64,000 bases of DNA from Squalus acanthias (Eukaryota). Positions within the stretch are counted from its first letter, which is position 1. Each line of letters starts with the position of its first letter. This document shows, piece after piece, positions 6,801-60,344 of this stretch. The translations under genes and the position numbers were made by a program. Below the pieces are notes generated by a model. The model searched no databases and had not been told where the DNA came from. It saw only the letters and a program-made list of their open reading frames with translations. Where the stretch lies: assembly GCA_030390025.1 (NCBI GenBank), contig JASTWF010000033.1:3784001-3848000 (forward strand), read 5' to 3'.

Positions 6801-6833
6801 AATCCCCAGTCTTTGAGATGTCAGATCCGGACA

Positions 6834-29345: not shown

Positions 29346-29996
29346 ATAGAGCATAGAACATAGAACAGTACAGCACAGTACAGGCCCTTCGGCCATCGAT
29401 GTTGTGCCGAGCATTGTCCAAAACCAAGATCAAGCTATCACACTGCCTATCAATCTGGTGTGCTCCATGTTCTTATCCAATAACCGCTTGAAAGTTCCTA
29501 AAGTGTCCGACTCCACTATCACAGCAGGCAGTCCATTCCACACCCCAACCACTCTCTGAGTACAGAATCTACCTCGGACATCCCTTCTATATCTCCCCCC
29601 ATGTACCTTATTGTTATGCCCCCTTGGAACAGCTGCATCCACCCGAGGAAATAGTCTCTGAACAACCACTCTATCTATCCCCCTCATCATCTTATAAACC
29701 TCTATTTAGTCGCCTGTCATCCTCCTCCGCTCTGAAGAGAAACGCCCTAGCTCCCTCAATCTTTCATCATAAGACCTCCCACACAAACAGGGCAGCATCC
29801 TGGTAAATCTCCTTTGCACCCTTTCCAATGCGTTAACGTCCTTCCTATAGTGAGGTGAGCAGAACTGAACACAATATTCCAAATGTGGTCTCACAAAGTC
29901 CTGTACAGTTGCAGCATCACCTCACGGTTCTTAAACTCAAACCCCTTTTTAATGAACGCTAACAAACTATAGGCCTTCTTTAATGCTCTATCCACC
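29346..29996 (-). mobile_element. CR1 3' fragment inside the satellite, copy 3
   Basis: Nearly identical to copy 2 without the SINE. Confidence 0.9.
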
Positions 29997-32900
29997 CCAC
30001 CTCATGTCCTCAGCTCCTCCCCACCCCACCTAATATCCTCAGCTTCTCCCCACCCCACCAAATATCCTCAGCTCCTCCCCACCACACCTAATATCCTCAG
30101 CACCTCCCAACCTCACCAAATATCCTCATTCCTCCCCACCCGACCTAATATCCTCATCTCATCCCCACCCCACCTAATATACTCAGCTCCTCCCCACCCC
30201 ACCTTATATCCTCAGCTCCTCCCCACCCCACCTAATATCCTCAGCTCCTCCCCACCCCACCTAATATCCTCAGCTCCTCCCCAACCCACATAATATCCTC
30301 AGCTCCTCCCCACCCCACCTAATATCCTCAGGTCCCCCCCACCCCACCTAATATCCTCAGCTCCTCCCCACCACACCGAATATCCTCAGCTCCTCCTCAC
30401 CCCATCTAATATCGTGAGCTCCTAATCACCGCACCTAATATCCTCAGCTCCTCCTCACCCCATCTAATATCATCAGCTCCTCCCCACCTCACCTAAAATG
30501 TACAGCCCCTCCCCACCAAACCTAATATCCTCAGCTTCTCCCCATCCCAACTAATATCCTCAGCTCCTCCCCACCTCACCTAATATCCTCAGCTCCTCCC
30601 AACCCACCTAATCACCTCATCTCCTCCACACCTCACCAAATGTCCTCAGCTCCTCCCCACCCCACCTAATATCCTCACCTCCACCCCACCCAACCCCACC
30701 TAATATCCTCAGCACCTCCCCACCCCACCGAATATTCTCACCTCCACCCCACCCCACCCCACCTAATATCCTCAGCTCCTCCCCACCCCACCTAATATCC
30801 TCAGCTCCTCCCCACCCCAACTAATATCATCATCTCCTCCTCACCCCACCTAATATCCTCAGCTCCTCCCCACCCCACCTAATATCCTGAGCTCCTCCCC
30901 ACCCCAGCTAATATCCTCAGCTCCTCCCCACCCCACCTAATATCCTCAGCTCCTCTCCACCCTACCTAATATCCTCAGCTCCACCCCACCTAATATCGTC
31001 AGCTCCTTCCCACCACACCAATATCCTCAGCTACTCCCCACCCCACTTAATATCCTCAGCTCGTCCCCACCCTACCTAATATCCTCAGCTCCTCCCCACC
31101 CCATCTAATATCCTCAGCTCCTCCCCATCCCACCTAATATTCTCAGCTCCTCTCCACCCCACCTAATATCCTCAGCTCCTCCCTACCTCACCTAATATCC
31201 TCAGCGCCTCCCCACCACACCTAATATCCTCAGCTCCTCTCCACCCCACCTAATATCCTCAGCTCTTCCCCACCTCACCTAATATCTTCAGCTCCTCCCC
31301 ATCCCACCAATATCCTCAGCTACTCCCCACCCCAACTAATATCCTCAGCTCGTCCACACCCTACCTAATATCCTCAGCTCCTCCACACACCACCTAATAT
31401 CCTCAACTCCTCCACACCCCACTAATATCCTCAGCTCCTCTCCACCCCACCTAATATCCTCAGCTCCACCCCACTTCACTTAATATCCTCAGCTCCTCCC
31501 CACCCCACCTAATATCCTCAGCTTCTCCCCACCCCACCTAATATCCTCATCTCCTCCCCACCCCACCAAATATCCTCATCTCCTCCCCACCCCACCAAAT
31601 ATCCTGAGCTCCTCCCCACCCCACCTAATATCCTCAGCTCTTCCCCACCCCACCTAATATCCTCAGCTCCTCTACACCCCACCTAATATCCTCAGCTCCA
31701 CCCCACCTAATATCCTTAGCTCCTTCCCACCACACCAATATCCTCAGCTCCTGCCCACCCCACCTAATATCATCACCTCCTCCCCATCCCACCTAATATT
31801 CTCAGCTCCTCCACACCCCACCTCATATCCTCAGCTCCTCCCCACCCCACCTAATATCCTCAGCTCCTCTCCACCCCAACTAATATCCTCAGCTCCACCC
31901 CACCTCACCTAATATCCTCAGCTCCTCCCCATCCCACCAATATCCTCAGCTACTACCCACCCCAACTAATATCCTCAGCTCGTCCCAACCCTACCTAATA
32001 TCCTCAGCTCCTCCCCACCCCACCGAATATCCTCAGCTCGGCCCCACCTCACTTAATATCCTCAGCTCCTCCCCCCCCCACCAAAAATCCTCAGCTCCTC
32101 TCAACCCCATCTAATATTCGCAGCTCCTCCCCACCCCAACTAATATCCTCAGCTCTTCCCCACCCTACCTAATATCCTCAGCTCCACCCCACCTAATATC
32201 CTTAGCTCGTTCCCACCACACCAATATCCTCAGCTACTCCCCTCCCCACCTAATATCCTCAGCTCGTCCCCACCCTACCGAATATCCTCAGCTCCTCCAC
32301 ACCCCACCTGATATCCTCAGCTCCTCCCCACCCTACCGAATATCCTCAGCTCCTCCACACCCCAACTGATATCCTCAGCTCCACCCCACCCCACCTAATA
32401 TCCTCAGCTCCTCCCCACCCCAACTAATAACCTCAGCTCCTCCCCACCGCACCTAATATCCTCAGCTCCTCCCCACCCCACCTAATATCCTCAACTCCTG
32501 CCCACCCCACCTAATATCATCAGCTCCTCCACACCCCACTAATATCCACAGCTCCTCCCCACCCCAACTAATATCATCAGCTCCTCCACACCCCACTAAT
32601 ATCCACAGCTCCTCCCCACTTCACCTAATATCCCCAGCTCCTCCCCACCCCACCTAATATCCACAGCTCCTCCCCACTTCACCTAATATCCTCAGCTCCT
32701 CCCCACCCCACCTAATATCCTGAGCTCCTCCCCACCCCACCTAATATCCTCAGCTCCTCCCCACCCCACCTAATATCCTCAGCTTCTCTGCACACTACCT
32801 AATATCCTCAGCTCCACCCCACCTAATCTCCTCAGCTCCTTCCCACCACACCAATATCCTCAGCTACTCCCCACTCCACCTAATATCCTCAGCTCGTCCC

Positions 32901-34527
32901 CACCCTACCTAATATCCTCAGCTCCTCCCCACCCCATTTAATATCCTCAGCTCCTCCCCATCCCACCTAATATTCTCAGCTCCTCCACACCCCACCTCAT
33001 ATCCTCAGCTCCTCCCCACCCCACCTAATATCCTCAGCTCCTCCCCACCACACCTAATATCCTCAGCTCCTCTCCACCCCACCTAATTTCCTCAGCTCCA
33101 CCCCACCTCACCTAATATCCTCAGCTCCTCCCCATCCCACCAATATCCTCAACTACTACCCACCCTACCTAATATCCTTAGCTCCTCCCCAACCCACCTA
33201 ATATGCTCAGATCGGCCCCACCTGACTTAATATCCTCAGCTCCTCCCCCCCCCACCAAAAATCCTCAGCTCCTCTCACCGCAGCTAATATCCGCAGCAAC
33301 TCCCCACCCCAACTAATATCCTCAGCTCTTCCCCACCCTACCTAATATCCTCAGCTCCTCCCCACACCACCTAATATCCTCAGCTCCTCCCCACCCCAAC
33401 TAATATCCTCAGCTGCTCCCCACCCCACCTAATATCCTCAGCTCCTCCCCACACCACCTAATATCCACAGCTCCTCCCCCACCCCGCCTAATATCCTCAG
33501 CTCCTCCCCACCCCACCTAATATCGTCAGCAGCTCCCCACCCCACATAATAACATCAGCTCCCCCTCACCTTATATCCTCAGCTCCTCCCCACCACACCT
33601 AATATCCTCAGCTCCTCCCCACCCCAACAATATCCTCAGCACCTCCCCACCCCACCAATATCCTCAGTTCCACCCCACCTCACCTAATATCCTCTGCTGC
33701 TCCCCCACCCCACCTAATATCCTCAGCTCCTGCCCACCCCACCTAATATCCTCAGCTCCTCCCCACGCCACCTAATATCCTCAGCTCCCCCCCACCTTAT
33801 ATCATCAGCTCCTCCCCACCCTACCTAATATCCTCAGCTCCTCTCACCCGACCTAATATCCTCAGCTCCACCCCACCCAACCTAATATCCTCAGCTCCAA
33901 CCCACTCCACCTAACATCCTCAGATCCTCCCCACCCCACCTCATATCCTCAGCTCCTCCCCACCCCACCTAATATGCTCAGCTCCTCCCCACCTCACCTA
34001 ATATACTCAGCTCCTCCCCCACCCCACCTAATATCCTCAGCTCCACCCCACCCCACCTAATATGCTCAGCTCCTCCCCACCTCACCTAATATACTCAGCT
34101 CCTCTCCACCCCACCTCATATCCTCAGCTCCTACCCACCCCATCTAATATCGTCACGTCCTCCCCACCCCACCTAATATCCATAGCTCCTCCCCACCCCA
34201 CCTAATATATTCAGCTCCTCCCCACCCCACCTAATATCCTCAGCTCCTCCCCACCCCACCTAATATCCTCAGCTCCTCCCCACGACACCTAATATCCTCA
34301 GCTCCTCCCCACCCCATCTAATATCGTCACGTCCTCCCCACCCCACCTAATATCCTCAGCTCCTCCCCACCCCACCTAATATATTCAGCTCCTCCCCACC
34401 CCACCTAATATCCTCAGCTCCTCCCCACCCCACCTAATATCCTCAGCTCCCCCCACCATGCCTAATATCCTCAGCTCCTCCACACCACACCTAATATCGC
34501 CAGCTGCTCCCAATTCCACCTAATATA

Positions 34528-35556: not shown

Positions 35557-37053
35557 TTGGCGACCGCGGCAGGAACTGGGTTAAAGGAGTGTAAATCAGT
35601 CATGGACAGCGCTTCTGGCGAAAGATCCCAAATGGAGGAAAGAATTTCATCATATGTGTTTAAGAAGGGTAACGTCACTAAGAAGTGTGTGCTAGGCTTG
35701 TTGCGGTCTGAGCGTCCGGTGGACGCAGCGTTAGAATGGACGGAGGGCAAGGACCATAGGCGCAGCATTGAAAAGGCGATATTACCCGTCTGTCTGCAAA
35801 GACAAGTCCAACTGCTAGATAAGCAGGTTGCCAAGTTAGAGGCAGAGATCAGGGACTCCGAGGCACATTCAGATGCAAGGGCTGCAGTAGGGAGCAGGTT
35901 ATGCACGGAGTTAAGGGATGAGAAGCAGGGAAGAATAAGCCCGGAGAAAACCTTCCGTAATCATAAGGAGTTCCTGCAATGCCAGGTAACTGAGGCAAAG
36001 TGGAACGAGAGAGTGGTTAGGGAGGAGAACGCTCGCTTGTCGAGTGACTTAAAGGTGCTGGGAGAGCAGTTGAAGGATATTCAGGTGGCATACAGAGTCG
36101 CCAGCACTAGGGGGTTTGATAAAGGTAATCATGGTCCTGGCCAGGAGCAGATCCGGAATTCGACCGATGCTCTATCTCAGGCCAAAGGGATGGTCTGCTT
36201 GGTAGCTCCGGGAATGGCCCGGGTAGATGAGGAAGAGCAGGAGGGAGATAAGGAGGACTGTGAGGCAGAGGAGGACGCTCGACCACCGCCCGAAGTGCCG
36301 GGACCAGGACCCATGTGCCCTGTCCGGCAGCGGAAATAGGGTGCGCCCGTAGACGGTCAAGAGCAAGGAGCACTGCAGAGTGACTTCGTGATCCCGTATA
36401 CGACCCCCAGCTGCAGGCAATGGTCTCCAACCTGACCAAACTGACCAGCAAAGGGGACCCATCTGTCCATTTTACGGATGTGGAGCAGTTGGGGGGAATC
36501 AATAATTGTAACGAAGCTGAGACAGACAAATTACTTTTATTTTCCCAGGATAGTAGGTTGTACCAGTCGCTCTCAGCGGGTAGCAAGAGGGGGCAGGGTA
36601 CGTTAGAGGGGATAAAGGATGACATCCTAAAGGCAATGGTCCTCAATGATGGAAGTCCCTTCTTTCGTGTGGAAAGGATACTACAGTCAGCTGGGGAGGC
36701 ACCACAGGCTTCCGCGGACAGGCTTGGGCCCATCTACCGGAGTGCCTGTGCAGGGGTGCCCGACCGGGCGCAGCTGCAGGGGGAGCCTAGGACTCATTGG
36801 CTGAGGACCCTGGTGGTGAACAGCCTGCCCAGGATCAAGGCCAAAGCAGAGGGATGGTTCGATTCCAGGGATCCGCAGACCACAGAAGAGAGTGTGATCC
36901 GGCAGTTAACGATTTCTTTTAAGAATGGGAGGGGTGAGGATGACAAACCAAAGGGCAGAGTACACGAGTTAAAGCCTAGTGGAGGCAACGTTAGAAGAGA
37001 GTGGCGCCAGGAATGGTGTAGCTCAGAGAAGAAGCAGGGTTGTTATGGGTGCG
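35557..37053 (+). pseudogene. gag: Outer gag, 5' part (coiled-coil N region + capsid-like region); stop at 36337 and a frameshift; continues at 46285-46511
   Basis: Clearly homologous to the inner gag (YVF.K.N.TKK, GDPSVHF..VEQ...IN.C, THWLR..V.NSLP, KGRVHE). The zinc knuckle CYGC|GSKGHWRKDC is split by the inner element. Confidence 0.88.
35558..35574 (+). promoter_or_regulatory. Primer binding site (tRNA-Arg(UCG)-like), outer provirus
   Basis: TGGCGACCGCGGCAGGA is complementary to the vertebrate tRNA-Arg(TCG) 3' end ...TCCTGCCGCGGTCG-CCA (tRNA sequence recalled, not searched). Confidence 0.8.
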
Positions 37054-38665
37054 TGTAGAATTCGCAATATATCGCGATTTTATTAATAAGGAGAAAACAC
37101 AGAGTTTCGTTCGGACAGCTTTTGTTTCAGCGGAATGCTGACAGGTTTAAAGTGGACACAAGCGGCCTGTGGGGTGGCCGCCGCACCTCGTGACAGAACA
37201 TTCTGGACTTTTCAACGGGCAGACAGGATAGCGTTCCAATGGACATTTGTGTAGGATCGATTGGGATTCAGCACAGTGAAGATAGTACACGAGACATTAT
37301 GGGTTTGCAGTATACACATAAATACTGAAATCGGTCTCCCAGGTACAAATGAAAGCCATTGTACCGAGTAATCAAGGGCCCATCCAGGGGACATTAATAT
37401 GTAAAATCCCAACGACTCTACGATGAGAGAGCCGTTGGCAGGTAGTTGTGCAAGACACTTGGAAGCCCCAGGACCCCTCCGGGGAGAACACCGACCGATT
37501 TAACAATGGGAGAAATATTGACAGGTGCTCAGACATTTACGAGTAGCCCCGAAGCCCATTGGGAGCGGAGATCACCCATGCGGGACATTTGAGTGCCAGA
37601 CCCTAAACAAAAGAATGGACATTATAGTTGGGCGGGAAACGGAAGATTTTGCACTATAATTGCAGGCTCCAAACCGTCCATCTTTCTCTTATCCGATCGA
37701 TTCGTAACCTCGTGGCTGCTCCTGTGTACTCGTAGCTGGGCTCCTGCTTGCCTGTTGCCTCTTTTGAAAAGGACTGTTGAACTTTCTGATCCGTTCGGAT
37801 CTACCTCGTGTCGCGTAATGAAGACCTATATTGGTAACCGGTATCGGAACCAAAGGCCCGAGAAGAGATGAGATGAGATGAGATGGGAAGAGACGAAGAC
37901 CATACTTATCGCCACGGTCAGTAAGCCCCGACCGCGCCTGTAGGTCGAATTGACATTTTCCTTGCCAGGAAGACTTCTTCGAAAGAACGGACACCGGGAA
38001 ATTCTTTTCTTAAGTATTGACTGGAATGTGAAAACCACCAATACAGATCTTCATCACAGCAGACGGTCCGGCCTGCTAGCCGGAGCAGCAGAAGCAAGTA
38101 AACAAGTGGGACCAGGAGATCTCCTGACCGACACGTGGGTGCTGCGGTGAAAAACATCCGATCAGCTATTCGGAATTTCTCCGAGTTATCACGAGTGGTG
38201 AGCATGAGTCTCGAAATCCTACGAATCTAGTTTAGGATAGATATTGATAGGGGAGGGTTTAAGGATTAAGGATATTTGTAATGTGTGCCCCTATTTACTA
38301 TGTGCCGTTCGTTCCTCGTTTCCCTAAGATCGACTATATAACTGTTTGTAAGATTGTACTGTCATTAATCTGTGCTTATGACATGTATTTCATAATCTTA
38401 AGTATCATGCAATAAAGATTTTCCATTTCGTACCATTCAACCGAGTCTACATGAGTTTCATCTCCATTACTGCTCTCGCATCTAAGTCCAGTGTCTAGAA
38501 CCGTAAGGGCGAGTGATTCGAACCACTCACAGGTGTGTCTAGTGTTCCCAGACTGGCTGGAGACCAGAACAGGCAACAAGACCTAGACCCGCACTGACAT
38601 ACAGGCTGCACAGAGCCGCGTGAATCTCACAGGCTGCGAGACACGCAGGGTCAGAATCCCTTACA
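37054..38665 (+). repeat. Inner 5' LTR (1612 bp); AATAAA at 38411-38416
   Basis: Direct repeat of 44669-46280 with about 5 substitutions seen by eye. Confidence 0.97.
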
Positions 38666-38669
38666 GAAA

Positions 38670-40481
38670 ATGGCGACCGCGGCAGGACACTGGCAGCGAG
38701 AGGGTAGTGTGTTAGACTTTGGAATGACTGTACGAAATGTTATGCAGGAAAAGATAGCAGATTATGTGTTTGGAAAGGTTAATCTAACTAAGAAATGGAT
38801 AAGTGAATTGTTAGCGGATAAAAGCCCGTTAGAGGCAGCCGAAAGGTGGACAGATAGTAAAGAACATAGAAAGACACTTGAGAAAGCAGTCTGGCTTATG
38901 TGTTACAAAAGGCAGGTTCAGATTTCAAACCAGACCATTACAGCGCTAGTAGCCCGAATCAGTCATTTAGAGGGAGAAATGGATGAGCAGGTTTATGGAG
39001 GGGAGGTGCTCATTAAGAATTTAAATGAGTTACACCAAGAAAGCCAGGAAGTCTCCAGTCACCTTAAAACAAGGATAGATTATCTCGAGTGCCAGGTCAC
39101 TGAGGCGAAGGTGAATGAGAGCAGGTTAAAGGAAAGATGTAACCGCCAAGCTGCCCAGATAAGAACTCAAGAAGAGAGCTTAACGGGGGTTAGGGCGGCA
39201 TATAAGTTGGCCCTTGAGGATAAGTTTGAGGGAGCCGACCATAGTGCCTGCCAAAGGGAGATAGAGCACCTCAAGAAGGCCGTAAACAAAGCGAACGGCA
39301 TGGTGTGCCTTATCAGTCCGTCAGCACACCAGCCGTTAGTAAGTGAGAAGTTTAAGAAATCCCCACCAAGCAAAGCAGAAGAAGTAGTAGCCACTGCGCC
39401 CTCCGCGCCACCCAGCTATTCGGAAACCTGGGTTAGGGAGGAAGCAATGGAAGAAACAAAAGAGCCCATTGAGAAAGAAGTATGAAAGGGACCGTTGTAT
39501 CCAGTAACGGGCATTAAAAGGGGCCCAAGCAGAAACGGTGGGGAAGAACCGGGGGATCTCCTCGGACAGCTGGTGTTGCCTCACAGTTCACATCAGCTGA
39601 GAGCTATGATAAATCACGTACGGAAGCTGACCGAGTCAGACGACCCTTCCGTACATTTCAGAGAAGTTGAGCAAGCCGCAGCCATTAACGGCTGCGATGA
39701 TGGGGAAACAGCAAAAATGCTGCTGTTCTCATTAGACAGCTCGGTCCTTCAGTGTCTCTCAGGCGAGAGCAAGAGGGGAACCAAGAGTTATGAGGAATTA
39801 AAGAATGAGGTCCTGGAAGTGTTGGGGGCGAACGATGAAGGTCCGTTTGCTAGAGTGGGACAGACAGTGCAGATGGAGGGAGAACCCCCGAAGGTTTTTG
39901 CCGACAGGCTGTGGCCAGTATATGAGCGCAGCTGTCTAGGTGCGCCCGAGCGCGAAGATGTGGAAAGCTTAGCTTTAACTCATTGGCTTAGGTGCATAAT
40001 AGCCAACAGTTTACCAGCCGTCAGAGAGCAGGCAAAAGCATGGTTTGATCCCAATGACCCCAACATTACGGAAGAGTCGGTCTTGAATCGACTCACGTTA
40101 GGATATCACAATATAAGGGGTATGGCAACACGTCCCCTTAAGGGAAGAGTACATGAGGTACGACCCGCAGCCCCGTATCAAAGAGAGTGGCATCAGGAGG
40201 GTAATCGCACCCCACAGGCAGGTAATGCTTGTTACGGGTGTGGGAAGACAGGGCACTGGCGCAAGCATTGCAGGAACCCTTGGAAGGATTCCAAGGATAA
40301 AAATCCCGCGGTCCGAGCCCAGGCGCCTGTCCCGGCTAAGGAAGCTAAGGCACCCACCCCTCCCGACGACCTCGAAGTAGTGTTAGGAGCCATGCGCAAT
40401 CTAATCTTGAGTGCACGTGGACAGGTGGCGGTCGCAACCGGCCCCGTAGGTGCCGCAGGACCGTCTAATAGTACCCAATGA
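38670..40481 (+). pseudogene. gag: Inner gag (~600 codons) with a single in-frame TGA at 39483-39485
   Basis: ORFs 38670-39485 and 39495-40481 share a frame; coiled-coil N region, PSAPPSY late-domain-like motif, capsid-like region and CCHC knuckle CYGCGKTGHWRKHC. Confidence 0.9.
38671..38688 (+). promoter_or_regulatory. Primer binding site (tRNA-Arg(UCG)-like), inner provirus
   Basis: TGGCGACCGCGGCAGGAC, 18 nt, 5 nt downstream of the LTR; same PBS as the outer element. Confidence 0.85.
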
Positions 40482-41603
40482 CTAGAGCCCACGCAGCCTG
40501 CCTACCTGTGTCTTTTTAAAAGACACGCACAGGAGGGGGTCTGCGGTGAGGAGGCCAGGTTAAAAGAGCAGGCCTTGCGGGAGGAGAACGCCCGCTTAAT
40601 AGGGAAAATAGATGGGCTGGAAGGGCAGCTTAGAGAGCAGGCCCTGCGGGAGGAGAACGCCCGATCAATGGGAAAGTTAGACGTGCTCAGGCTAGAAGCG
40701 CAGCTTAGTGAGATAAAAGCAGCCTACAGGGTAGCCAAAAGCCGGGAGTATGAGGATGTAAACCAATGCAAACTGTACCAGCCAGGTGCGCAAGGGAAAA
40801 CTACAGGGGTAAATCCCGCCAACGGGAAAGCACAGCCCCAGGTAGGACCACAAGGCACACAGGCAGGCATAGCAGCTTGCATCAGGGGAAGGGACATCCC
40901 GGACGATCATGCAGCGTTTTTCTGGAATTGGGGGTAAGATGAGGAAGAATTCAGGGTACCCGGGTCTGATGAGGATAGTGCAGATGAGGATAGCGATGAC
41001 GACGGGTGGTTTCGGAGGAACGGTCCCTTTTACGATATGGAAGGGACAGGGGCTGCAGGTAGAGATCCACACAGGGTGGACACACGAGCTGCAGGTCCCG
41101 AAGACAGGAGGGAGGAGCTAGGGGAGGCGGGGCCAGCCGCTATGGGAGCACAGAGAGTACCGGTGTGGCTCCCAGAGATGTGGCCGCCCGCTTTGAACGT
41201 CCCGTCCTTGGGGGAGGCGGAGATCACGAGTGAAGGGCCGCCTGCTGGGCCGAGCAGGGCGGGGCCACAAACTGCAAGCCCCGAGGTTAGGGAGGCGGAG
41301 TCAGCGGAGGCGGAGCCAGCGACTGTGATGGAACCCCAGGTCATCCCGATGGAAGTCTCGGAACCCGGTCCGTCCGTCACGGAACCCCCGCCCATAGCAA
41401 CTCCCCGTAGGTCAAGTAGAGAACCCCAGCCCAGGAGGATGTGGTCATGTCCCCAGACTGCCCCAAGGCGTAGAGTTAAGGTTAAGATAACCCAGATACA
41501 GGCCGGCCACATCGCGGCAGCAACAGGCTGCGGCAGATCGGAGGGAAGTGTCAGTGCCCTCCCACCGTCGGGAAGAGCTCGCAGCAGCCTTCTCAGAATT
41601 TAA
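40482..41603 (+). other. ORF-X: ~373-codon non-enzymatic frame in the pol position, in frame with gag, with one internal TAA (40935-40937)
   Basis: Translates LEPTQPAYLC...REENARL...REENARS...AAYRVAKSR...WNWG*DEEEFRVPGSDEDSADEDSDDDGWF...RRSSREPQPRRMW...; ORFs 40575-40937 and 41037-41603 are both in the gag frame. Confidence 0.7.
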
Positions 41604-41866: not shown

Positions 41867-44218
41867 ATGGAACGAATTCTAGTATTGCTCGTGGCAATCG
41901 GATGTGGATTGGCCTATCGAGGCCGCACCAAGGATGTCGTGGTGTTTGGATGTTCCGGGGATGCGGCCCCCATCGCGGTGGATGGGACCGGAAGACGGGA
42001 GGCAGAGGAGACCAGCACCTATTTCCACAAGGGAAGGTGGCCAGGATGGCTAGGAACGAACTCAACGGAGTATTCTAGCACATCGGGGTTTGCCTACAAA
42101 GAGACTTCTTTACTGTGCCCCAAAGTAAGGATCATCGCACCCAGGATCAGCGTCACCGTCGGCAAACGGATTTGTTTGACTTGTAGTGGGAAGGTCCCAT
42201 TGAGCCGATGGTGGTGGCTGCGAAAGCTGAGCAAAACTATGAGGAACTCTTCGGTCGAGTGGGAACGACTGGGTAATAATACCCATCGGACAATTACGGG
42301 GACAAACGGACAAGTGAAAGTCTGTTGGGACAAATGGTGGGAACCGGACGAGGGAATTTATGTATGTATGTGGGGGTCAAAGTACGTTTGCCCCAAAGGC
42401 ATCTCCATATTTTTCATTAATCAATGGCAGGATAACGGACAGGGGATGAGGTGGGATGCGAGCACCAGGGGGTGCGGAGCCCCATTCTCCCCGATCCCAG
42501 TAAATGCCACTGAGCTCATTGCGCGCCCACGCAAAGCCCCGCCCACGATTCCGGTGGTTCTAGCTAAGGAAGAAGGGTGCCCTAAAACTAGTAAGGGACC
42601 CGGGAATGGTTTGGTACTGGTCCCCACAGACCAGATACTATTTCAGGGAGTACATTACGCGGTGGCCTCGGTGATTTTAAATCTCACCGAGGTGCGGTTA
42701 CCAGAGTGGTGCCCCAAATAGACGGAACAGTTGTATCAGGTCCTGTTGACCAAGATGTTCAGACAATTTTACGAATTCGATTTCGCGGAAATTGATAAAA
42801 CAAGTTTGTACACTGCACCACAGGAAGTTTTGAATCAAGCAGGGAGGCAAAGAAGGGGTTTGGTGAACGATGCGTTCACTGCTTTTAACACAGGTACATC
42901 TGTGGTCAACGCTCTAGACAGTGTGGAGCTGCAGACCCAGATTAATGGTTTAAAGACACAATTAAAAGACATTCTAACAGATGAGAATAAAGTGGTAGGG
43001 TCGGGTCTACACGAGGACCAAGCCATGACTCTCCATTTAAAGGAAATTATAGCAGAGTTGGAGAAACATGCAAAGACGGTAAATGCCCTGATTAGGGAAG
43101 ATCGGAATGCATCCGACCAAGCTGCGCAGAACGAGGTGTGCGTGCTTTACGGGGCGTGGTTACTGGGCGAGGGCCGCAGTAATTTGGAGGATTTAAAACA
43201 AGGTTTGGTTCCGTCCTGGATAAGTAACAAACACCTGCGGGCGCTCCACCCTTTTCAGAACGCATTAAGTCCGTGCCAGCTCAGGCTAGCTTCAGAAGCT
43301 TACCCAGTCCCCGTGGACTGCGGACGTTCAAACCATACTATTATGGGAATAGTATTACGTATGCCGGTTTTGGGCGACACAGCAAAGCCCGCCCCGGTGT
43401 ATCGGGTAGAGAACATTGGTGTCATTCAGGGGGGAGCCCACATTCGTTATGCAGCGGTTCCACCTTACGTCATCCGCTGGGAGCAAACGATGACAGGTAC
43501 AGATCTCTCTGGTTGTCGTGGCAGGGGAGCACACATAATACTGTGCCCCCAGCACTTGAATGCCTTTTTAACACCACAGTGCGGGTTCAGAACGACTGGC
43601 GCCAAGTCCATGAATTGCACCATGGAGGCAATGGCACAAGATCATGTGCCTCCGCAGGTAGCATACATCGGGGGTGGAACATATTGTGTTACCACTGCAG
43701 CGCAACACTACCAGCATGGAAACCGTAGCCGGTGTCCGGTGAGTGACAGCAGTTTCTGTTTTAAACCCAGGGCGGAAGTTCAAGTAGCACAACAGCGAAT
43801 TATCCCAATCCCTGAACCATCCACTGTTCATCTCACAGTAAAAGAGAATTTCACCGACTTGCAGCGATTCGTCGCGCATTTTGGATACCTCATTCCCCCT
43901 CTCCCTGAACACCTCACCAAACTTTTAAAAGCCGTCGCGGTGTCACAGAAACATTTTTACACATTAGAACAGAAAACTGTCGAAATAGGAACAGACATTT
44001 TGGATATAGTAGTTCCACCGTGGTGGAATCTGTTCACCAATATTGAAGTGCCTTCATGGATCAGAATAGCCTCCTACATTTTAGTCGTATGCCAAGTGTT
44101 TATTGTAGTGTACCTATTGGTCGTACATTGTAAAAGAGACAAACGCCTCACTAAGCATGAAAACACGGGAGAGTGGCGAGAACGTTACGTGCGCGTGCAC
44201 GATGAAAGCACCGTGTAA
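41867..44218 (+). pseudogene. env: Inner env (783 codons): signal peptide, Ig-like domain, furin site, class I fusion module and TM anchor; single in-frame TAG at 42719-42721
   Basis: MERILVLLVAIGCGLA signal; RQRR|GLVNDAFTAFNTGTSVVN at 42845 onward; heptad ELQTQINGLKTQLKDIL; Cys-rich region; TM IASYILVVCQVFIVVYLLVV; candidate splice acceptor ...CTGATCACAG ending 41853. Confidence 0.9.
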
Positions 44219-44668: not shown

Positions 44669-46280
44669 TGTAGAATTCGCAATATATCGCGATTTTATTA
44701 ATAAGGAGAAAACACAGAGTTTCGTTCGGACAGCTTTTGTTTCAGCGGAATGCTGACAGGTTTAAAGTGGACACAAGCGGCCTGTGGGGTGGCCGCCGCA
44801 CCTCGTGACAGAACATTCTGGACTTTTCAACGGGCAGACAGGATGGCGTTCCAATGGACATTTGTGTAGGATCGATTGGGATTCAGCACAGTGAAGATAG
44901 TACACGAGACATTATGGGTTTGCAGTATACACATAAATACTGAAATCGGTCTCCCAGGTACAAATGAAAGCCATTGTACCGAGTAATCAAGGGCCCATCC
45001 AGGGGACATTAATATGTAAAATCCCAACGACTCTACGATGAGAGAGCCGTTGGCAGGTAGTTGTGCAAGACACTTGGAAGCCCCAGGACCCCTCCGGGGA
45101 GAACACCGACCGATTTAACAATGGGAGAAATATTGACAGGTGCTCAGACATTTACGAGTAGCCCCGAAGCCCATTGGGAGCGGAGATCACCCATGCGGGA
45201 CATTTGAGCGCCAGACCCTAAACAAAAGAATGGACATTATAGTTGGGCGGGAAACGGAAGATTTTGCACTATAATTGCAGGCTCCAAACCGTCCATCTTT
45301 CTCTTATCCGATCGATTCGTAACCTCGTGGCTGCTCCTGTGTACTCGTAGCTGGGCTCCTGCTTGCCTGTTGCCTCTTTTGAAAAGGACTGTTGAACTTT
45401 CTGATCCGTTCGGATCTACCTCGTGTCGCGTAACGAAGACCTATATTGGTAACCGGTATCGGAACCAAAGGCCCGAGAAGAGATGAGATGAGATGAGATG
45501 GGAAGAGACGAAGACCATACTTATCGCCACGGTCAGTAAGCCCCGACCGCGCCTGTAGGTCGAATTGACATTTTCCTTGCCAGGAAGACTTCTTCGAAAG
45601 AACGGACACCGGGAAATTCTTTTCTTAAGTATTGACTGGAATGTGAAAACCACCAATACAGATCTTCATCACAGCAGACGGTCCGGCCTGCTAGCCGGAG
45701 CAGCAGAAGCAAGTAAACAAGTGGGACCAGGAGATCTCCTGACCGACACGTGGGTGCTGCGGTGAAAAACATCCGATCAGCTATTCGGAATTTCTCCGAG
45801 TTATCACGAGTGGTGAGCATGAGTCTCGAAATCCTACGAATCTAGTTTAGGATAGATATTGATAGGGGAGGGTTTAAGGATTAAGGATATTTGTAATGTG
45901 TGCCCCTATTTACTATGTGCCGTTCGTTCCTCGTTTCCCTAAGATCGACTATATAACTGTTTGTAAGATTGTACTGTCATTAATCTGTGCTTATGACATG
46001 TATTTCATAATCTTAAGTATCATGCTATAAAGATTTTCCATTTCGTACCATTCAACCGAGTCTACATGAGTTTCATCTCCATTACTGCTCTCGCATCTAA
46101 GTCCAGTGTCTAGAACCGTAAGGGCGAGTGATTCGAACCACTCACAGGTGTGTCTAGTGTTCCCAGACTGGCTGGAGACCAGAACAGGCAACAAGGCCTA
46201 GACCCGCACTGACATACAGGCTGCACAGAGCCGCGTGAATCTCACAGGCTGCGAGACACGCAGGGTCAGAATCCCTTACA
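44669..46280 (+). repeat. Inner 3' LTR (1612 bp)
   Basis: Direct repeat of 37054-38665. Confidence 0.97.
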
Positions 46281-46284
46281 TGCG

Positions 46285-46511: not shown

Positions 46512-48614
46512 CTGGGGTCTTCTCAGCCCGTTTACCTGTGCCCACTAAGTTATGATGCTTGGAAGGGACTGTGCGTGAAGATGGGGGTGGAGAAGGTGCA
46601 AGGGACCTATCTGCTGGACACTGGAGCTTCAAGCACCGTTGTCTATGCGGATAACCCGACCACATCACCTCTATCGAATGGGGTCCCATATAACTTAGTA
46701 GGGTTCACCGGGAACGAACAGGCTGGGTCTTTCTCCATCCCACTACCCATCGATCTGGCTACACTCTGTACGGAGTGGATGTGTGTCCGGATGCGGTGGG
46801 AGCGGGAGGGAATAGGCATTTTGGGGGCAGACTTCATACTGGCCCACAAGATATTGGTGGATTTCCGGAATCACTGTCTTTGGGAGGCAGTGTGCACGGG
46901 GAAGGAGAAGGAGGTGATAGTTATACCAGGGAAGCAAGGCAAGGGAACCGTGTGTACGATGAAGCCCAAGGATAGTTATGACCTTGAACTTTTGGTCACT
47001 TCTACCCCGGCGGAGTACATAGCAGATGTGCGAGCCAACCTCGCGGCATTCGCTACACAGAAGCACGACTGTGGGAGGGTAATAGGGGTGGAGTTCAGAG
47101 TAGAAGGAGACCCCATGGCCAGACCACAGAAACAGTACAACTTCCCCAGATAGGCAGAGGCAGATTGAGAGACGGCTTTGGGACCACTGGTTGAGCAGGG
47201 TGTGTTGAGACCCATAGCGACCCATGTGAACTCTCCGATTTGGCCAGTTAGGAAACTGGACAATTCGTGGAGAGCCACTGTGGACTATCAGGTTCTTAAC
47301 AAGAACATCCTAGGCCTGTGCCCCCACCATTGCAGCCATAGCCGACCTGATCGGGATTATCACGGCATTCGCGAAAACATTCACAGTGCTGGACATTTCG
47401 AACGGATTCTGGTCTATCCCTCTCAAAAGGGAGGACCAGTATAAATTCGCATTTACTTTCAAGGGTCAGCAGTACACATGGACCTGCCTCCCCCAAGGGT
47501 TTCATAACAGTCCTTCTATTTTCCACCAATATATGGCCAACTGTTTAAAAGGGTTCAGCAGACAGCAGCGGCTTGTACAGTACGTGGACAACTTGCTCTT
47601 GTTCTCCAACGAGGGGGAGGAGCATGGCCCCCTGCTGGCTGAGCTTCTGAGTCTGTTAAAGGAAGCTGGGTTCAAGGTTAATCCCAAGAAAGCACAGATC
47701 GGCCAGCAGGACATAAACTTCCTCAGGCTGACCATACGTGCTGGGGAGAGGGCCATCGATGAGGCGAAAAGGAAGGCGGTACAGGAGCTACCTGCCCCGA
47801 CCACGATAACGGAGGTAAGATCCTTCCTGGGACTCACAGGATATTGCAGGGATTTCATAGAGGACTATGCCGCTACGGCAGCTCCTCTACTCCGGCTCCT
47901 TCACAAGGGAGTGGGATGGGTGAGGGATGAGGACTGCATGGCAGCTTTTAGTCGTCTGTAGAGAGATTTGCAGACCGCAGCGGCTTTAGGAGCGTTGATG
48001 GGGGGAAGGAGTTATTTTTGGAGGTAGCTGCCACAGGGGAGAGTTTGAGCGCAGTGCTGCTCCAGGAGCGGCATGGCAAGCTAAGGCCTGTGGTATACTC
48101 ATCAAGAATCCTCACAGATGTAGAGAGGGGGTACTCCAATTGTGAGAGGCACCTGCTTGCCACACATTGGGCCGTGAGGAGATCACAAATCTTCACGGTG
48201 GTGTCCCCGTTAACTCTCTTAACCCATCATTAGCCCACTCAGATGCTTCTGGATGGGAGGATAAAGGACGGCACGGTGAGCAGTGCACGCATTGCTCGCT
48301 GGACTTTATTGCTCTCTCAAACAAATTTGAGAGTGAAAGGCCTCTGTGAGCCCAAGCTCGCCGCAAATTTGATCTACCCAGGGGTGGCCAAAAATGTTCT
48401 GTTGAAGGGGTATGGGACGTAGAAATAGGGTTTCGGGCTGGGATCCATGTAGACGGGCCCAGTACAGTGGTGGCAGGGGAGCAACTCACTGGAAGCAGGA
48501 TTTTTGACCCAAAGGCAGGCAATGCCAAGGCTTTTACACTCCCGAGCACCATGAGCGCCCAGCAAGCTGAACTGTCGGCGGTGGTGTATGTGGTTACTCA
48601 CCCCGAAGTGTACC

Positions 48615-50365
48615 ATAAGAACATAAGAACATAAGAAAAAGGAGCAGGAGTAGGCCAATCGGCCCCTCGAGCCTGCTCCACCATTCAATGAAATCATGGC
48701 TGATCTGATCCTAACCTCAAATCTAAAGAACACAAGAAGTAGGATCAGGACCCGGCCACTCAGCCCCTGGGCCCGCTCCGCCACCCACAGGGCCTCGACC
48801 GATCCGAACTCAGCCTCATGTCCAATTTCCAGCCCGCTCCCCGTAACCCCTAATTCCCTTTACTTCTCGGAAACTATCTATTTCTGTTTTAAATTTATTT
48901 AATGATGTAGCTTCCACAGCTTCCTGGGGCAGCAAATAACAGAGACCTACTACCCGCTGAGTGAAGAAGTTTCTCCTCATCTCGGTTTTGAAAGAGCAGC
49001 CCCTTATTCTAAGATTATGCCCCCTAGTTCTAGTTTCACCCATCCTTAGAACATCCTTACCGCATCCACCCGATCAAGCCCCTTCACAATCTTATATGTT
49101 TCAATAAGATCGCCCCTCATTCTTCTGAACTCCAATGAGTAGAGTCCCAATCTACTCAACCTCTCCTTATATGTCCACCCCCTCATCCCCGGGATTAACC
49201 GAGTGTACCTTCTTTGTACTGCCTCGAGAGCAAGTATGTCTTTTCTTAAGTATGGACACCAAAACTGTACGCAGTATTCCAGGTGCGGTCTTACCAATAC
49301 CTTATATAACTGCAGCAATACCTCCCTGTTTTTATAATCTATCCCCCTAGCAATAAAAGCCTTCTTGATCACCTGCTGCACCTGCATCGTAACTTTTTGA
49401 TTTTCTTGCACGAGGACCCCCAGATCCCTTTGTACTGCAGTACTTTCCAGTTTCTCGCCATTAAGAAAATTACTTGCTCTCTGATTTTTCCTGCCAAAGT
49501 GCATAACCTCACATTTTCCAATATTGTATTGCATCTGCCAAATCTCCGCCCACTCACCCAGCCTGTCTATATCCCCTTGTAGGTTTTTTATGTCCTCCTC
49601 ACTTTCTACTTTACCTCCCATCCTTGTATCATCTGCAAACTTTGATATGTTACACTTGGTCCCCTCCTCCAAATCGTTAATATAGATTGTAAAGAGTTGG
49701 GGTCCAGCACCGATCCCTGCGGAACACCACTGGCTACTGGTTGCCAGTCCGAGAATGAACCATTTATCCCAACTCTCTGTTTCCTGTTAGATAACAAATC
49801 CTCCACCCATGCCAGAATATTACCCCGAATCCAATGATTTTTTATCTTGAGCAATAATCTTTCATGTGGCACCTTGTCGAATGCCTTCTGCAAGTCTAAA
49901 TACACTACGTCCACTGGTTCCCCTTTATCCACCCTGTACGTTATCTCCTCAAAGAACTCAAGCAAATTTGTCAGACATGACTTCCCCTTCAGAAAGCCAT
50001 GCTGACTTTGTCCTACTAAATTAAGTTTATCTAAATGTTCCATTACTGTCTCCTTAATAATAGACTCCAAAATTTTACCCACCACAGATGTTAGGCTAAC
50101 TGGTCTATAATTTCCAGCATTCTGCCTACTTCCCTTTTTAAATAAGGGTGTTACTTTAGCAGTTTTCCAATCTGCCGGGACCTTTGCTGAGTCCAGGGAA
50201 TTTGGGAAAATTATCACCAAAGCATCCACAATCCCTACTGCCACTTCCCTCAAGACCCTAGGATGAAAGCCATCAGGCCCAGGGGATTGATCCGCCTTGA
50301 GTCCCATTATTTTACTGAGTACCAATTCCTTAGTGATTTTAATCGTATTTAGCTCCTCCCCTATA
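48615..50365 (-). mobile_element. 5'-truncated CR1 (family B) inserted in the RNase H of the outer pol
   Basis: (CATAAGAA)n tail, RT motifs, close to the CR1 at 55952-60565; candidate TSD GTACC at 48610-48614 / 50366-50370. Confidence 0.93.
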
Positions 50366-50832
50366 GTACCTACGGCCTATAATATTTGCTCGGACAGCAT
50401 GTTCACTTGCAATTCTTGTACAGAATATTTAGCCATTTGGTCTCATCGCGGGTTCACATCTGCAGACGGCAAACCCCTAGCAACAAAGCCATTGTTGCAA
50501 CAGATCATAACATCGATAGGAACCGAGGGGGAATTCTATATCCACAAAGTCAAGGCCCATTCAAAGGCGGAACCCCTTGCGGAGGGCAATCAGCAGGCCA
50601 ATGTGATGACCAAAGAGGGTGCTCGAACGGGCACGTTTTGGGATACATATGGTTCGAGTCAGGTAGCAGCGATCAGAGACAGGGGTGGGGCCTAAGGGAG
50701 TGCAGGGGTAGCATTGGCCCCGGACCTAAAGATTGTCCAGGCACGGAATCCCGTCCTAAAGACTGTTCTGGAGACGCTGGCTAAGGGAGATAAGGTAGAG
50801 CGTCCATACGGAGTGGCAGGTATCTCGGTAAA

Positions 50833-52277
50833 TACGTAGTACCATTATTCAAGAAGGGTGGTAGGGATAAACCAGGGTTATTACAGGCCATTGAGCCTAA
50901 CATCAGTGGTAGGGAAATTATTGGAAAACATTCTGAGGGACAGAAATAGTCTCCACTTGGAGAGGCAAGGATTAATTAAGGATAGTCATCATGGCTTTGT
51001 CAGGGGGAGATCATGTCTGACCAATTTGATTGAATTTTTAGAGGGGGTGACTAGTTGTATGGATGAGCGTAGTGCAGTTGATGTAGTCTACATGGACTTC
51101 AGTAAGGCATTTGACAAAGTCCCGCATGGGAGACTGGTCAAGAAGGTAAAAGCCCATGGGATCCAGTGCAACTTGGCACATTTGATCAAAAATTGGCTTA
51201 GTGGCAGGAGGCAGAGGGTGTTGGTCGAAGGTTGTTTTTGTGACTGGAAGCCTGTGTCCAATGGTGTACCGCTAGGATCGGTGCTGGGTCCTTTGCTGTT
51301 TGTAGTGTACATTAATGATTTAGATATTAATGTAGGAGGTATGATCAGTAATTTCGCAGATGACACGAAAATTGGTGGGGTGGTAAATAGCGAGGAGGGA
51401 AGCCTCCGGCTACAGGATGATATAGACGGGTTGGTTAGATGGGCAGAACAGTGGCAAATGGAATTTAACCCTGGGAAGTGTGAGGTAATGCATTTTGGGA
51501 GGACTAACAAGGAAAGGGAATACACAATGAATGGTAGGTCCCGAGGAAGGACAGAGGATCAGAGGGACCTTGGGGTGCATGCAAATAGATCCCTGAAGGC
51601 AGCAGGACAGGTTGATAAGGTGGTTAAAAAGGCATATGGGAAACTTGCCTTCATTAGCCGAGGCATAGAATATAAGAACAGGGAGGTAATGATGGAGCTG
51701 TACAAAACGGTAGTTAGGCCAAAGCTGGAATACTGTGTGCAGTTCTGGTCGCCACACTATAGGAAGGATGTGAGTTCATTGGAGAGGCTGCAGAAGAGAT
51801 TCAACAGGATGTTAACTGGGCTGGAGCGCTTCAGCTATGAAGAGAGACTGGACAGGCTGGGGTTGTTTTCCTTAGAGCAGAGAAGGCTGAGCGGGGACCT
51901 GATTGAGGTGCACACAATTATGAGGGGCATAGATAGGGTAGATAGAAAGGAACGTGTCCCCTTAGCAGAGGGGTCAATATCCAGGGGGCATAGTTTCAAG
52001 GGAAGGGGCAGGAGGTTTAGAGGGGTATTGAGGAAAATCTTTTTCACCCAGAGTGTGGTTGGAGACTGGGACTCACTGCCTGAAAATGTGGTAGAGGCAG
52101 GAACCCTCACAATATTCAAGAATTATTTAGATGAGCACTTGACACGCCACAGCATACAAAGCTACGGACCAAGTGCTGGAAAATGGGATTAGAATAGACA
52201 GGGCTTGAAGGCCGGCGCGGACACGAGGGGCCGAAGGGCCTCTTTCTGAGCTGTATAACTCTATGACTTTATGACTC
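50833..52277 (+). mobile_element. 5'-truncated CR1 (family C) inserted upstream of the integrase; RT frame 50858-52192 still open
   Basis: RT motifs with FADD; (CTATGACT)n tail; TSD TAAA at 50829-50832 / 52278-52281; removal restores pol ISVKEGMVFRGEQWAVP. Confidence 0.93.
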
Positions 52278-53806
52278 TAAAGGAAGGGATGGTTTTCAGA
52301 GGGGAACAGTGGGCAGTTCCGCAGCAGCACCGGAGAGAATTCCTTCAGTTGGCCCACGAGGGTCCAGGAGCGGGTCACCCCAGGCCGGAGACCACCTGGC
52401 AATGGGTGGAACAGGCAGGGTGGTCGCCGCAACTGAGGGAGGACGTCCGCGACTTCTGCGCGGATTGCTTGGTGTGTGCTGCAAACAACCTTGACCCCCA
52501 AAAAAGAAAGGTATCCATGGGACACAGTCGGAGAGTGGAGGGACCATGGCAGTCCATACAGGTCGATTATATCGGACCGCTGCCCACCGCGCAGGGGGTT
52601 ACAAATACTGCCTGGTCCTGGTGGATGTGTTCTTTCAATGGGTAGAAGCCTTCCCATGCCGAACAGCCACAGCTTTGTGGACCGCAAGGATTCTAGTGAG
52701 AGAAGTGTTCTCTCGAATACCACGGTATGTGGAGTCCGATCAGGGGATTCACTTCACATGTGTGTCATGCAGGCGACTCTGAAGATGCTCGGTGTAGAGG
52801 GTAAATGGCACGTCGCACACAACCCGCAGTCATCGGGGATTGTGGAGCGGATGAATAGGACCATCAAGGAAAGGTTACGGAAGGAGACGGGAGACTCGCC
52901 TAGAAAATGGGCGGAGGTTTTGCCGTTAGTTCTGATGGGGGTCTGAGCCAGCCCGTCTAGAAGCACAGGGCATTCCCCGCATGAGCTCGTGACTGGCAGG
53001 GTCATGAGGACGCCCAGCCATGTACTGGCCCCGGTTCTCACGGAAGGTCAGTTGAGAGAGGTGAACCGGGACAGGTTTGTTAAGAATTTATTTGAGCATC
53101 TCAGAAAGATCCATTGGCAGGCTGCCAGTAACATTGGGAAGCAACATCGTAGAAATCGCTTATTGCTTGAGCCTCAGAGGCAACACGAGTGGAAGGTCGG
53201 AGATCAAGTAATGGTTAGAAACTTCTCCAGGGTAGGGACTTTTGAACCGCTATACATGGGACAGTACAGTATCGTGGATATTGCAAGTCCGATGGTATAT
53301 GCGATCAAAATGCCTCGACGCACTAAGTGGTTCCATATCAATCAGTGCAAGCTTTTCAACCCTGGGGAAAGAGCTGATAAGAGGAGGAAACAGCAGGGAG
53401 TGGTGAGCTGCGCTACAGGTGTGGGTCTCCAGCCAATAATCTGGGACTGTGAGGAGCCCACAGAGGGACCAGTCGTTCCGTCTGTGGGGGCAGGAGTGAG
53501 AAGGAGTGCCAGGATCCCACAGCCGAGGGAGCCGTGGACGCCTCCTTACACACCGTTGAACGAAGGAAGCCGGAGTCGTAATAGGCTCAGGGTCGAGGAG
53601 ACCTAGTGTGGCCACCCGGAGACTGGTGGCGCTGTACATAACTTCTTTCTCTCCTGTCTGTTGCCTTAGCTTGTCTGTATAGTTTGGATTTACATGTATG
53701 CTGTGGATACCAAATGTAATCGTGTGTAGCTGCGTCTGGAAAGGTGAGGAATCACCCAAGGACAACGTTGCATTCTGTGTCTTTTCAGAGAACGCCTAAG
53801 AACAAG

Positions 53807-55027
53807 ATGAAGTCAGCCATGGTCGTCCTGAGCATCATGATTGAAGCCAGCGCGAGTCACAGGGGCGACACCGAGGAATCGGTTATCTTCGGCTGCACCG
53901 GCGGAGACGGACCGACCGTGACTACTGGAGGTGGCTCGAAGGATGGGGCGAGCGTCTATCTCCACGAGGGAAGATGGCCTGGATGGCTGGGGTCGAATTC
54001 CACCCGGTATTCCAGCCATGACAAGTTCACCAATGGTGAAGCGTCCATCCCATGCCCGAGAATAGGGGTTACCACCTCCCGGGTTAGGGTAACAGAGGGT
54101 AAACGGGTGTGCCGTAGCTGCAGGGGACACATTCCACTGGGAAGGTGGTGGTGGCTCAGGAAACTGAGCGCGGATACAGGGGACCAGACAGCTGACTGGG
54201 AAATACTAAGTAATGACACGGGTTCTCAGGGAGGAGTGAATGTTTGTTGGGATAAGTGGTGGGAATCCGAAGAAGCGCTTTATGTGTGTATGTGGGGGTC
54301 GGAAAAGATCTGCCCAGCGGGTGTGTCGATGGCGTTTAAGAGACACCGGGGCTGGGATCGGTTGGGATCGGAGTGTGGACTCCTGTGTGATCCCAATACC
54401 CCCGAACACCATCAACGCCACAGAGCTCATCTCATGCACCAGGAAGCCCCCGCCCAGAGCCCCGACGGTACAGACGGCTGTAGATGGGTGTCCCACCACC
54501 ACCAGTGGTCCAGGGAATGGGTTGGTGTTAATCCCGACTGACAAAGTGTTGTTTCAGAACGTGCTCTACGCCGTGGCATCCGTGATCCTGAACCTGACTG
54601 AAGTCCATCTGCCTGTGTGGTTTCCAAGGAAGACGGAGAAGCTTTATGAAGCTCTGTTAAAAGCGATGTTTCAGGATATTTTATGAACTGGACTATGGAA
54701 ATGTAGAGAAAGAACAGCTTTATAAGCTGAAAGTTGGGGACAGTGTGGGGTCCGCGAGGCAGAGAAGAGGGACCTGGAACAATTACTTTTCTGCCGGATC
54801 ATCTCACTGAGTTAATAAAGACCGTTGAACTCTCCCAGAAATTTTTTTACACTTTGGAGCAAAAGACAGTAGAAGTGGGTGAGGAGATCAAGGGGATTGT
54901 CTCACCACCATGGTGGGACATCGGTCTGAGTATAGAGATTCCTCCCTGGATCCGCATCTGTTCCCATGCATTAGTTATCTTACAATTGTTGATTGTAAGC
55001 TACTTGTTCTACACCAGCTGCAGGTGA
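53807..55027 (+). pseudogene. env: Outer env, frameshifted and with a ~1-kb internal deletion
   Basis: Homologous to the inner env (GRWPGWLG.NST.YSS, WWWLRKLS, CWDKWWE, GPGNGLVL.PTD); RQRR|G at 54757-54771, then a jump to LPDHLTELIK...FYTLEQKT...PPWW...TM; acceptor CTTTTCAG ending 53788. Confidence 0.88.
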
Positions 55028-59142: not shown

Positions 59143-59180
59143 TTTTATTTTTTGCTCTCTTGAAACCTCCCCCCCACTAA

Positions 59181-60137: not shown

Positions 60138-60344
60138 TCTATGTAATTAATTAAAAATGTATTATTTACCCTTCAGTTAATTTATGCCAGCAGTCTCTGC
60201 TACACCACAGATACCCGAGAAACAATAAAATTGAAGTTTTGTATAAAAAAAAAGAAATACTCACCAACCAATCACTTACCTGCTTTCTGGTGACGTCACA
60301 CTTCGATTATTTTTTACCTCTCTCCTGCTCTCGGCTTGGTGAAA

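Follow-up and report, generated by a model that had tools for sequence, protein, structure and literature searches.

The env gene of an endogenous retrovirus in the shark Squalus acanthias encodes a protein with an N-terminal head of about 220 residues, part of which is a predicted immunoglobulin (Ig)-like domain. This head is probably the built-in receptor-binding part of the protein, which is itself likely a fusogen of the F type. Sister lineages carry the same core with other heads.

The provirus and its envelope gene

The window, that is the whole stretch of 64,000 nucleotides that was analysed (contig JASTWF010000033.1, positions 3,784,001 to 3,848,000), holds an inner provirus nested inside an older, broken outer provirus. 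The main features of both are the following.

37054..38665, + strand: 5' LTR of the inner provirus, 1612 bp, TG...CA, preceded by a 4-bp target duplication (37050-37053)
38670..40481, + strand: gag-like frame of the inner provirus, with a coiled coil, a capsid-like part, a zinc knuckle below the cut-off and one stop
41867..44218, + strand: env gene, 783 codons, with one in-frame stop in the window copy
44669..46280, + strand: 3' LTR of the inner provirus, with 5 differences from the 5' LTR in 1612 bases, followed by a 4-bp target duplication (46281-46284)
46512..53606, + strand: broken outer pol (PR 46512, RT 47314, RNase H 50291, IN 52259-53606), interrupted by LINE-like insertions
53807..55024, + strand: decayed outer env, with the F1-like part mostly missing

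The two rates quoted in the available text of PMC4422223 place the insertion of the inner provirus at roughly 0.7-7 million years ago. The window copy of env is dead, with its stop ahead of the cleavage site and without pol, which is absent from the inner provirus of the window. The inner family as a whole is a young, many-copy endogenous retrovirus. A search of the 3.7 Gb genome gave 7378 candidates, among which the 137 loci that were scored are all 98-100% identical, and about 106 of these (counted from the table) have open frames of at least 780 codons. Of the 7 fetched regions that bear the same type of env head, 4 have pol pieces upstream of it, and two sequencing-read runs of uncertain kind span the entire element. 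The named protein homologues all come from sharks and rays; word-based and HMMER database searches returned no teleost or amphibian homologue.

Several further observations concern the element and its surroundings. Open frames lie between gag and env (40482-41603). They include a second gag-like coiled-coil piece, which two copies of another subfamily also have, and a frame that is acidic, rich in proline and assignable to no known family. The first ATG of the gag-like frame (38670) falls within the stretch after the 5' LTR (38666-38690) where the primer-binding site is expected. The inner family also occurs as serial copies, spaced about 11.0 or 7.7 kb apart, at G000:C23:29232649-29266521 and G000:C352:58900-67447, like tandem proviruses that share LTRs. 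Three database models (P0002 and P0003 from sharks, named Niban-like and ZFP2-like, and P0009 from the whale shark) fuse env pieces to other frames, either by mis-annotation or by exonisation. Elsewhere in the window there are a 29-bp tandem satellite (22400-34500; the repeat tool counts about 290 units, and the + strand is strongly C-skewed), a probable repeat array of 64-66% G+C (1-6900) with strong strand skew, whose - strand holds long open frames that overlap one another, and LINE-like RT frames on both strands (49046-52192 and 56191-60146), two of them inserted in the outer pol.

The env product can be divided as follows, with residues numbered from the ATG at 41867.

41867..41911, + strand: likely signal peptide, hydrophobic residues 1-15 (hydropathy peak at residue 1; boundary placed by eye)
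41912..42115, + strand: N-terminal arm, residues 16-83 (68 residues), of no known family, with one conserved Cys and one sequon
42116..42421, + strand: predicted Ig V/I-set-like domain, residues 84-185, with Cys106, Trp117, D-x-G-x-Y-x-Cys167 and the extra Cys 84, 103, 153 and 175
42422..42577, + strand: linker and proline-rich stalk, residues 186-237, with 7 Pro in 205-237
42578..42856, + strand: F2-like part of the core, with a Gly-Pro motif at its start and an RQRR furin-type site (42845-42856) at its end
42719..42721, + strand: in-frame stop upstream of the cleavage site, present in 1 of the 30 closest loci (the window copy only)
42857..44218, + strand: F1-like subunit, with a likely fusion peptide and heptads, a Cys-rich region, a TM helix near 44066-44122 and a short tail

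The core shows the layout of an F-type class I protein: a signal peptide, a furin site (RQRR at residue 327), a hydrophobic and heptad-bearing segment, which is only mildly hydrophobic directly after RQRR, and a C-terminal TM helix near residue 734. In the Atlas features it groups with the Baculo_F and Fusion_gly clusters (scores of 0.91-0.92). The Pfam search gave no PF00523 match for the core, and PDB sequence searches gave no match to a solved F or foamy Env. TLV_coat and GP41, the gamma-type TM profiles of Pfam, matched neither env part at E <= 10. An AlphaFold model of the full-length protein from the single sequence reached a pLDDT of 32 and is unusable. On the Atlas features, the layout and a comparison by eye with lokiretroviral Envs, the core is likely an F-type fusion core.

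The Ig-like domain and its predicted fold

The preliminary description, made from the letters of the window, had placed an Ig-like motif at 42143..42376. The translation of the env frame matches the stretch quoted there and confirms it: V96-x-G99 and L104-x-C106 stand upstream, with Cys106 at codon 42182, followed by Trp115-117 (42209) and D161-E-G-I-Y-V-C167 (42347-42367). Two details had to be adjusted. C106 and C167 are 61 positions apart, as described, which leaves 60 and not 61 residues between them, and the interval covers the core of a predicted domain that extends more widely, to about residues 84-185. The spacing agrees with the about 55-75 residues that separate the B- and F-strand Cys of the Ig V/I-set, and W117 aligns with the Trp of the host I-set, as the C strand demands. 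Shuffling the env residues 100,000 times never produced a strict Ig pattern of our own design, based on textbook features, and produced a loose one 53 times, both patterns having been composed after the sequence was seen; the sole match of the loose pattern in the six frames of the window is the present site.

The motif is conserved in an alignment of 35 rows that combines several subfamilies and four database proteins. C103, C106, W115-117, C153 and C167 are retained in 33-34 rows (34 for C106 and 33 for C167) and C175 in 31. Position 161 is E in 30 rows and D in only 5, the exact D-x-G-x-Y-x-C being found in the window copy. The outer env, in which the domain had also been described as conserved, does possess a homologous stretch (54083-54289), but this is decayed, with a changed B-strand Leu, a changed F-strand Gly, a short deletion and a frame change.

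Between subfamilies the domain is 57-64% identical. Its pN/pS is 0.28-0.33, with pS near saturation; the F1-like part ranges over 0.17-0.34, the arm over 0.41-0.50 and the linker over 0.53-0.68. The reference set holds seven copies from other subfamilies, of which five belong to a single subfamily and one spans only 20 codons of the domain. From the ratio in the domain it follows that the domain has been kept by selection on the protein.

The fold was approached by profile, feature and structure comparisons. Ig_3 is the sole Pfam match on env (E 0.014), and the 16.4 bits that it scores fall below the cut-off of 30. The HMMER comparison proposed earlier returns an Ig family, though no Ig profile reaches its curated Pfam cut-off. 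Ig_3 is matched by 18 of 19 aligned copies, with a best E of 2.1e-4. Among the weak PDB sequence matches 54 of 58 are Ig chains (antibody chains, JAM-A or CRTAM). In the Atlas features the best ten family-bearing matches of a ray homologue all belong to one family or clan (10/10; V-set/I-set/ig), its V-set/I-set clusters scoring 0.90-0.92 and ranking below unnamed clusters at 0.92-0.93.

The AlphaFold model of 107 residues, computed with the 35 rows, has a mean pLDDT of 72.8, seven strands and zero helices of at least 4 residues; its G strand is poor at the C-terminal end (pLDDT < 50 at 100-107). Foldseek pairs this model with antibody, VNAR and TCR chains, as judged by title and length (probability 0.99-1.00, TM about 0.5-0.57). 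The combined AlphaFold and Foldseek check thus yields a seven-strand model with Ig chains as best matches, but nothing at E <= 0.001. VIA-align over 48,161 chains gives a top 50 with Z of 6.0-7.2, below 8 and in the range that the tool describes as common, and an rmsd of about 3 A over 65-96 residues. TREM-1, NKp44, TREM2 and NCAM2 lead (Z 6.8-7.2), and the titles in the top 50 are mostly those of Ig-superfamily proteins or antibody complexes, a few giving the name of a complex only.

A profile of 30 host Ig_3/I-set-type domains aligns in register over 71 columns with 31% identity, scoring 21.9 against a maximum of 13.0 in 20 shuffles, with an HHalign probability of 19%. The host V-set profile aligns over 17 columns only. 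The two subtypes are consequently favoured by different data, the V type by the structure matches and the I-set by the profile alignment (71 vs 17 columns). In the PDB profile search CRTAM is the best Ig protein (E 0.02 over 93 columns); an unrelated ArfGAP that ranks above it (E 0.005) was judged an artefact of Cys spacing. A further match, to the 5014-residue repeat protein P0010 (E 4e-21), was dismissed as the sum of 16 weak repeats.

These tests are mutually dependent, because all of them read the same motif, and each is weak alone; together they support the Ig V/I-set assignment, to which the profiles, the Atlas features, the AlphaFold model and the structural matches each point weakly. 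An Ig fold, as a beta sandwich of two sheets, is predicted for residues 84-185 with high confidence. The predicted disulfides are the canonical C106-C167 and, probably, C103-C153 (strands B and E) and C84-C175. By antibody numbering, C103 and C153 would sit opposite each other, pointing outward, on strands B and E, and the pair C84/C175 would lie near the start of A and G; all six Cys would therefore pair in an Ig fold.

Sister heads, the role of the head and its origin

A distant database fragment (P0013) led to sister loci, of which the 20 best of 150 listed were compared. All 20 share the core, with about 27-36% identity over long alignments, and none of them matches residues 16-216 of the window env; the Ig profile gives at most 2 bits on them. 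In open frames the sister heads are Cys-rich, measure about 170-200 residues and end in a Pro/Thr stalk. They fall into three types, two being 41% alike. Their profile scores against the window head (19-22) are not above the best of 40 shuffles (21-24). Likewise, the sister heads do not rise above shuffles against host Ig profiles and have no relevant Pfam match. The sole motif common to the window head and all three sister types is a V-C-x-x-C at a similar place. These sister loci (L107, L119, L120 and relatives in G000) represent three env lineages that combine the F-like core with unrelated-looking Cys-rich heads. Upstream of the sister loci, two fetched regions contain RTs that are 44% and 53% identical to the outer RT of the window. 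Since the core is shared and the heads are unmatched, the head is the replaceable or the fastest-diverging part of the protein, as would be expected of a receptor-binding module.

In the proposed mechanism the head would remain on the N-terminal subunit after furin cleavage and would be held outward by the proline-rich stalk. It would then bind a cell-surface protein, a contact of Ig to Ig being the simplest guess. This binding would attach the virion and may help to trigger the refolding of the core, comparable to the IgV-like RBD and proline-rich region of gamma-type Env. Less securely, the Ig domain may come from a host Ig-superfamily gene acquired long ago, prior to the split of the virus's shark and ray lineages.

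The domain had at first been read as a receptor-binding or immune-mimic module. Receptor binding is the best inference, by analogy, from the N-terminal position, the stalk and the replacement of heads, while mimicry has little support. As a counterpoint, the domain, with its 57-64% identity between subfamilies, is better conserved than one might expect of a receptor-binding site that evolves fast. A role as immune mimic or shield, in which the domain engages immune receptors or covers a core that attaches by itself, as the core of the head-less lokiretroviral Envs has to, is unlikely. Immune receptors are indeed among the top structural neighbours, but adhesion and muscle Ig domains lie within 1 Z unit of them. 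Lokiretroviral Envs without a head exist and, in the parts of their description available, no known separate attachment protein is encoded; moreover, the accessible portions of Hotzel 2024 (bioRxiv 10.1101/2024.03.17.585361) suggest that a newly captured RBD initially does no more than enhance binding and could help in immune evasion. On the other hand, the position ahead of the stalk and the head replacement between lineages resemble known RBDs.

The origin of the domain can be weighed in the same manner. The domain had been described as captured from a host. Host origin is likely in that the Ig signature is intact, and capture from the host Ig superfamily is plausible on the sequence; any capture would be old and its donor cannot be named. 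The proposed survey for a closest host homologue gave none at E <= 0.001 among 1.84 billion representatives, and the best of 60 host Ig domains reached 6.5 bits, a sample (the first 30 entries from each of two listings of 150, one for V-set and the other for Ig_3) that is biased to canonical domains and excludes little. This lack of a donor also suits an acquisition from another virus, which could be a gamma-type fish retrovirus supplying its RBD or a DNA virus supplying an Ig glycoprotein; the domain would still serve as an attachment head. RBD transfer between Env groups is documented in the available text of Hotzel 2024, and the viral fold search returned the cytomegalovirus RL11 family, adenovirus E3 and turtle herpesvirus F-Nec2. 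Nevertheless, such an acquisition is rather unlikely: the viral matches rank behind the cellular Ig matches (best E 0.029 as against 0.007), and the gamma-type RBD-C lacks the B-F disulfide according to the same portions of Hotzel 2024, whereas the shark domain has kept the Cys pair, the Trp and the F-strand signature. It is very unlikely that a viral beta-sandwich has converged on the Ig fold and that the sister heads are its diverged homologues. The V-C-x-x-C shared by all head types and the position of every Ig score below its cut-off speak for convergence, but the A-prime, B, C, E and F signatures are in register with the host I-set (71 columns) and CRTAM (93), and the head-to-head scores stay within those of the shuffles.

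Building on receptor binding by the head, a broader proposal is tentative. The chondrichthyan retroviruses of the snakehead-like clade might possess an F-type fusogen with a plug-in head, one such head being a captured host adhesion Ig domain (CRTAM/nectin-like or I-set) that contacts its receptor through Ig-Ig mimicry.

Comparison with known envelope proteins and retroviruses

Ig-type RBDs on retroviral Envs are already published. In the accessible portions of Hotzel 2024, in which sharks and paramyxoviruses are unmentioned, gamma-type Env has an N-terminal IgV-like RBD before a proline-rich region, and the RBD of the alpha-like Env-Dbi is a captured, SIRP-derived canonical IgV. The preliminary statement that orthoretroviral SU is not known for a canonical V-set ahead of the fusion module was consequently too strong, one of the published gamma-type or related RBDs being host-captured. 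It holds for the F-type core, for which no Ig head was found in the literature searched, mainly papers open without subscription; nor was an Ig head on a likely F-type core with differing sister heads found there. The shark protein resembles the gamma-type Envs described in that text (MLV, FeLV, Env-Pb(1), ZFERV) in the order of an N-terminal Ig domain and a proline-rich region and in the exchange of heads from lineage to lineage, and it resembles Env-Dbi in the B-F disulfide and an extra one, as predicted here. It differs from gamma-type Env in a core that is likely F-type (a long Cys-rich subunit after the cleavage site and no TLV_coat/GP41), in the 68-residue arm ahead of the Ig domain and in having no recognisable host donor.

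The F-like lokiretrovirus Env, as far as described in the available parts of Wang and Han 2020 (PMC7947760), shares the signal peptide, the Gly-Pro start of the core, R-x-x-R, the fusion peptide, the coiled coil and TM. In the supplement excerpts, compared by eye, at most about ten residues separate the signal peptide from Gly-Pro in 22 of the 23 published Envs, which therefore have no head; the remaining one is truncated. The Gly-Pro-type motif of the shark protein stands at residue 245, with about 225 residues extra. The supplement row for cartilaginous fish has 0 positive genomes. Furthermore, a 7-residue motif of the outer RT occurs, within these excerpts, in the rows of snakehead retrovirus only (3/3), and the portions of Han 2015 (PMC4422223) that were available place snakehead-retrovirus-like ERVs, including CmiERV lineage I, in the elephant shark. 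These form a fish retrovirus clade in cartilaginous fish with RT motifs that are alike by eye, and the element is therefore not filed as a lokiretrovirus; the RT motif points away from such membership. The best PDB match of the outer RT is the foamy virus RT, with MLV and Ty3 close, and Pfam finds RNase H and integrase domains in the outer pol.

Foamy virus Env, in the available text of Fernandez et al. 2024 (PMC11468914), likewise joins an F-like core and its own RBD in one polypeptide. There, the RBD (residues 217-543) is inserted in domain III, and domain II, which has an Ig-superfamily fold in F proteins and foamy Env alike, is part of the core; the shark head instead extends the protein at its N-terminus, where it follows a short signal peptide and stands on a stalk. 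With the paramyxo- and pneumovirus F protein (PF00523) the shark core shares the order of F2, furin site and F1 and the Atlas clusters, and differs in having no Pfam or PDB sequence match.

In paramyxo- and pneumoviruses attachment is performed by a separate protein. The receptor specificity of F-type proteins accordingly has several sources: this separate protein in the paramyxoviruses, an inserted RBD in the foamy viruses and no known module in the lokiretroviruses. The present comparison suggests that F-type Env is not limited to the latter two groups. Within a single genome the same core bears an Ig head or, in sister lineages, other heads. This is a natural series for the coupling of attachment to the F-type trigger and also bears on how often retroviruses recruit Ig domains; the small head can be studied alone. 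If the plug-in head were indeed a captured Ig domain, it would be an independent repeat of the gammaretroviral design of RBD plus proline hinge on an unrelated core, and one gene would do what the paramyxoviruses do with two proteins.
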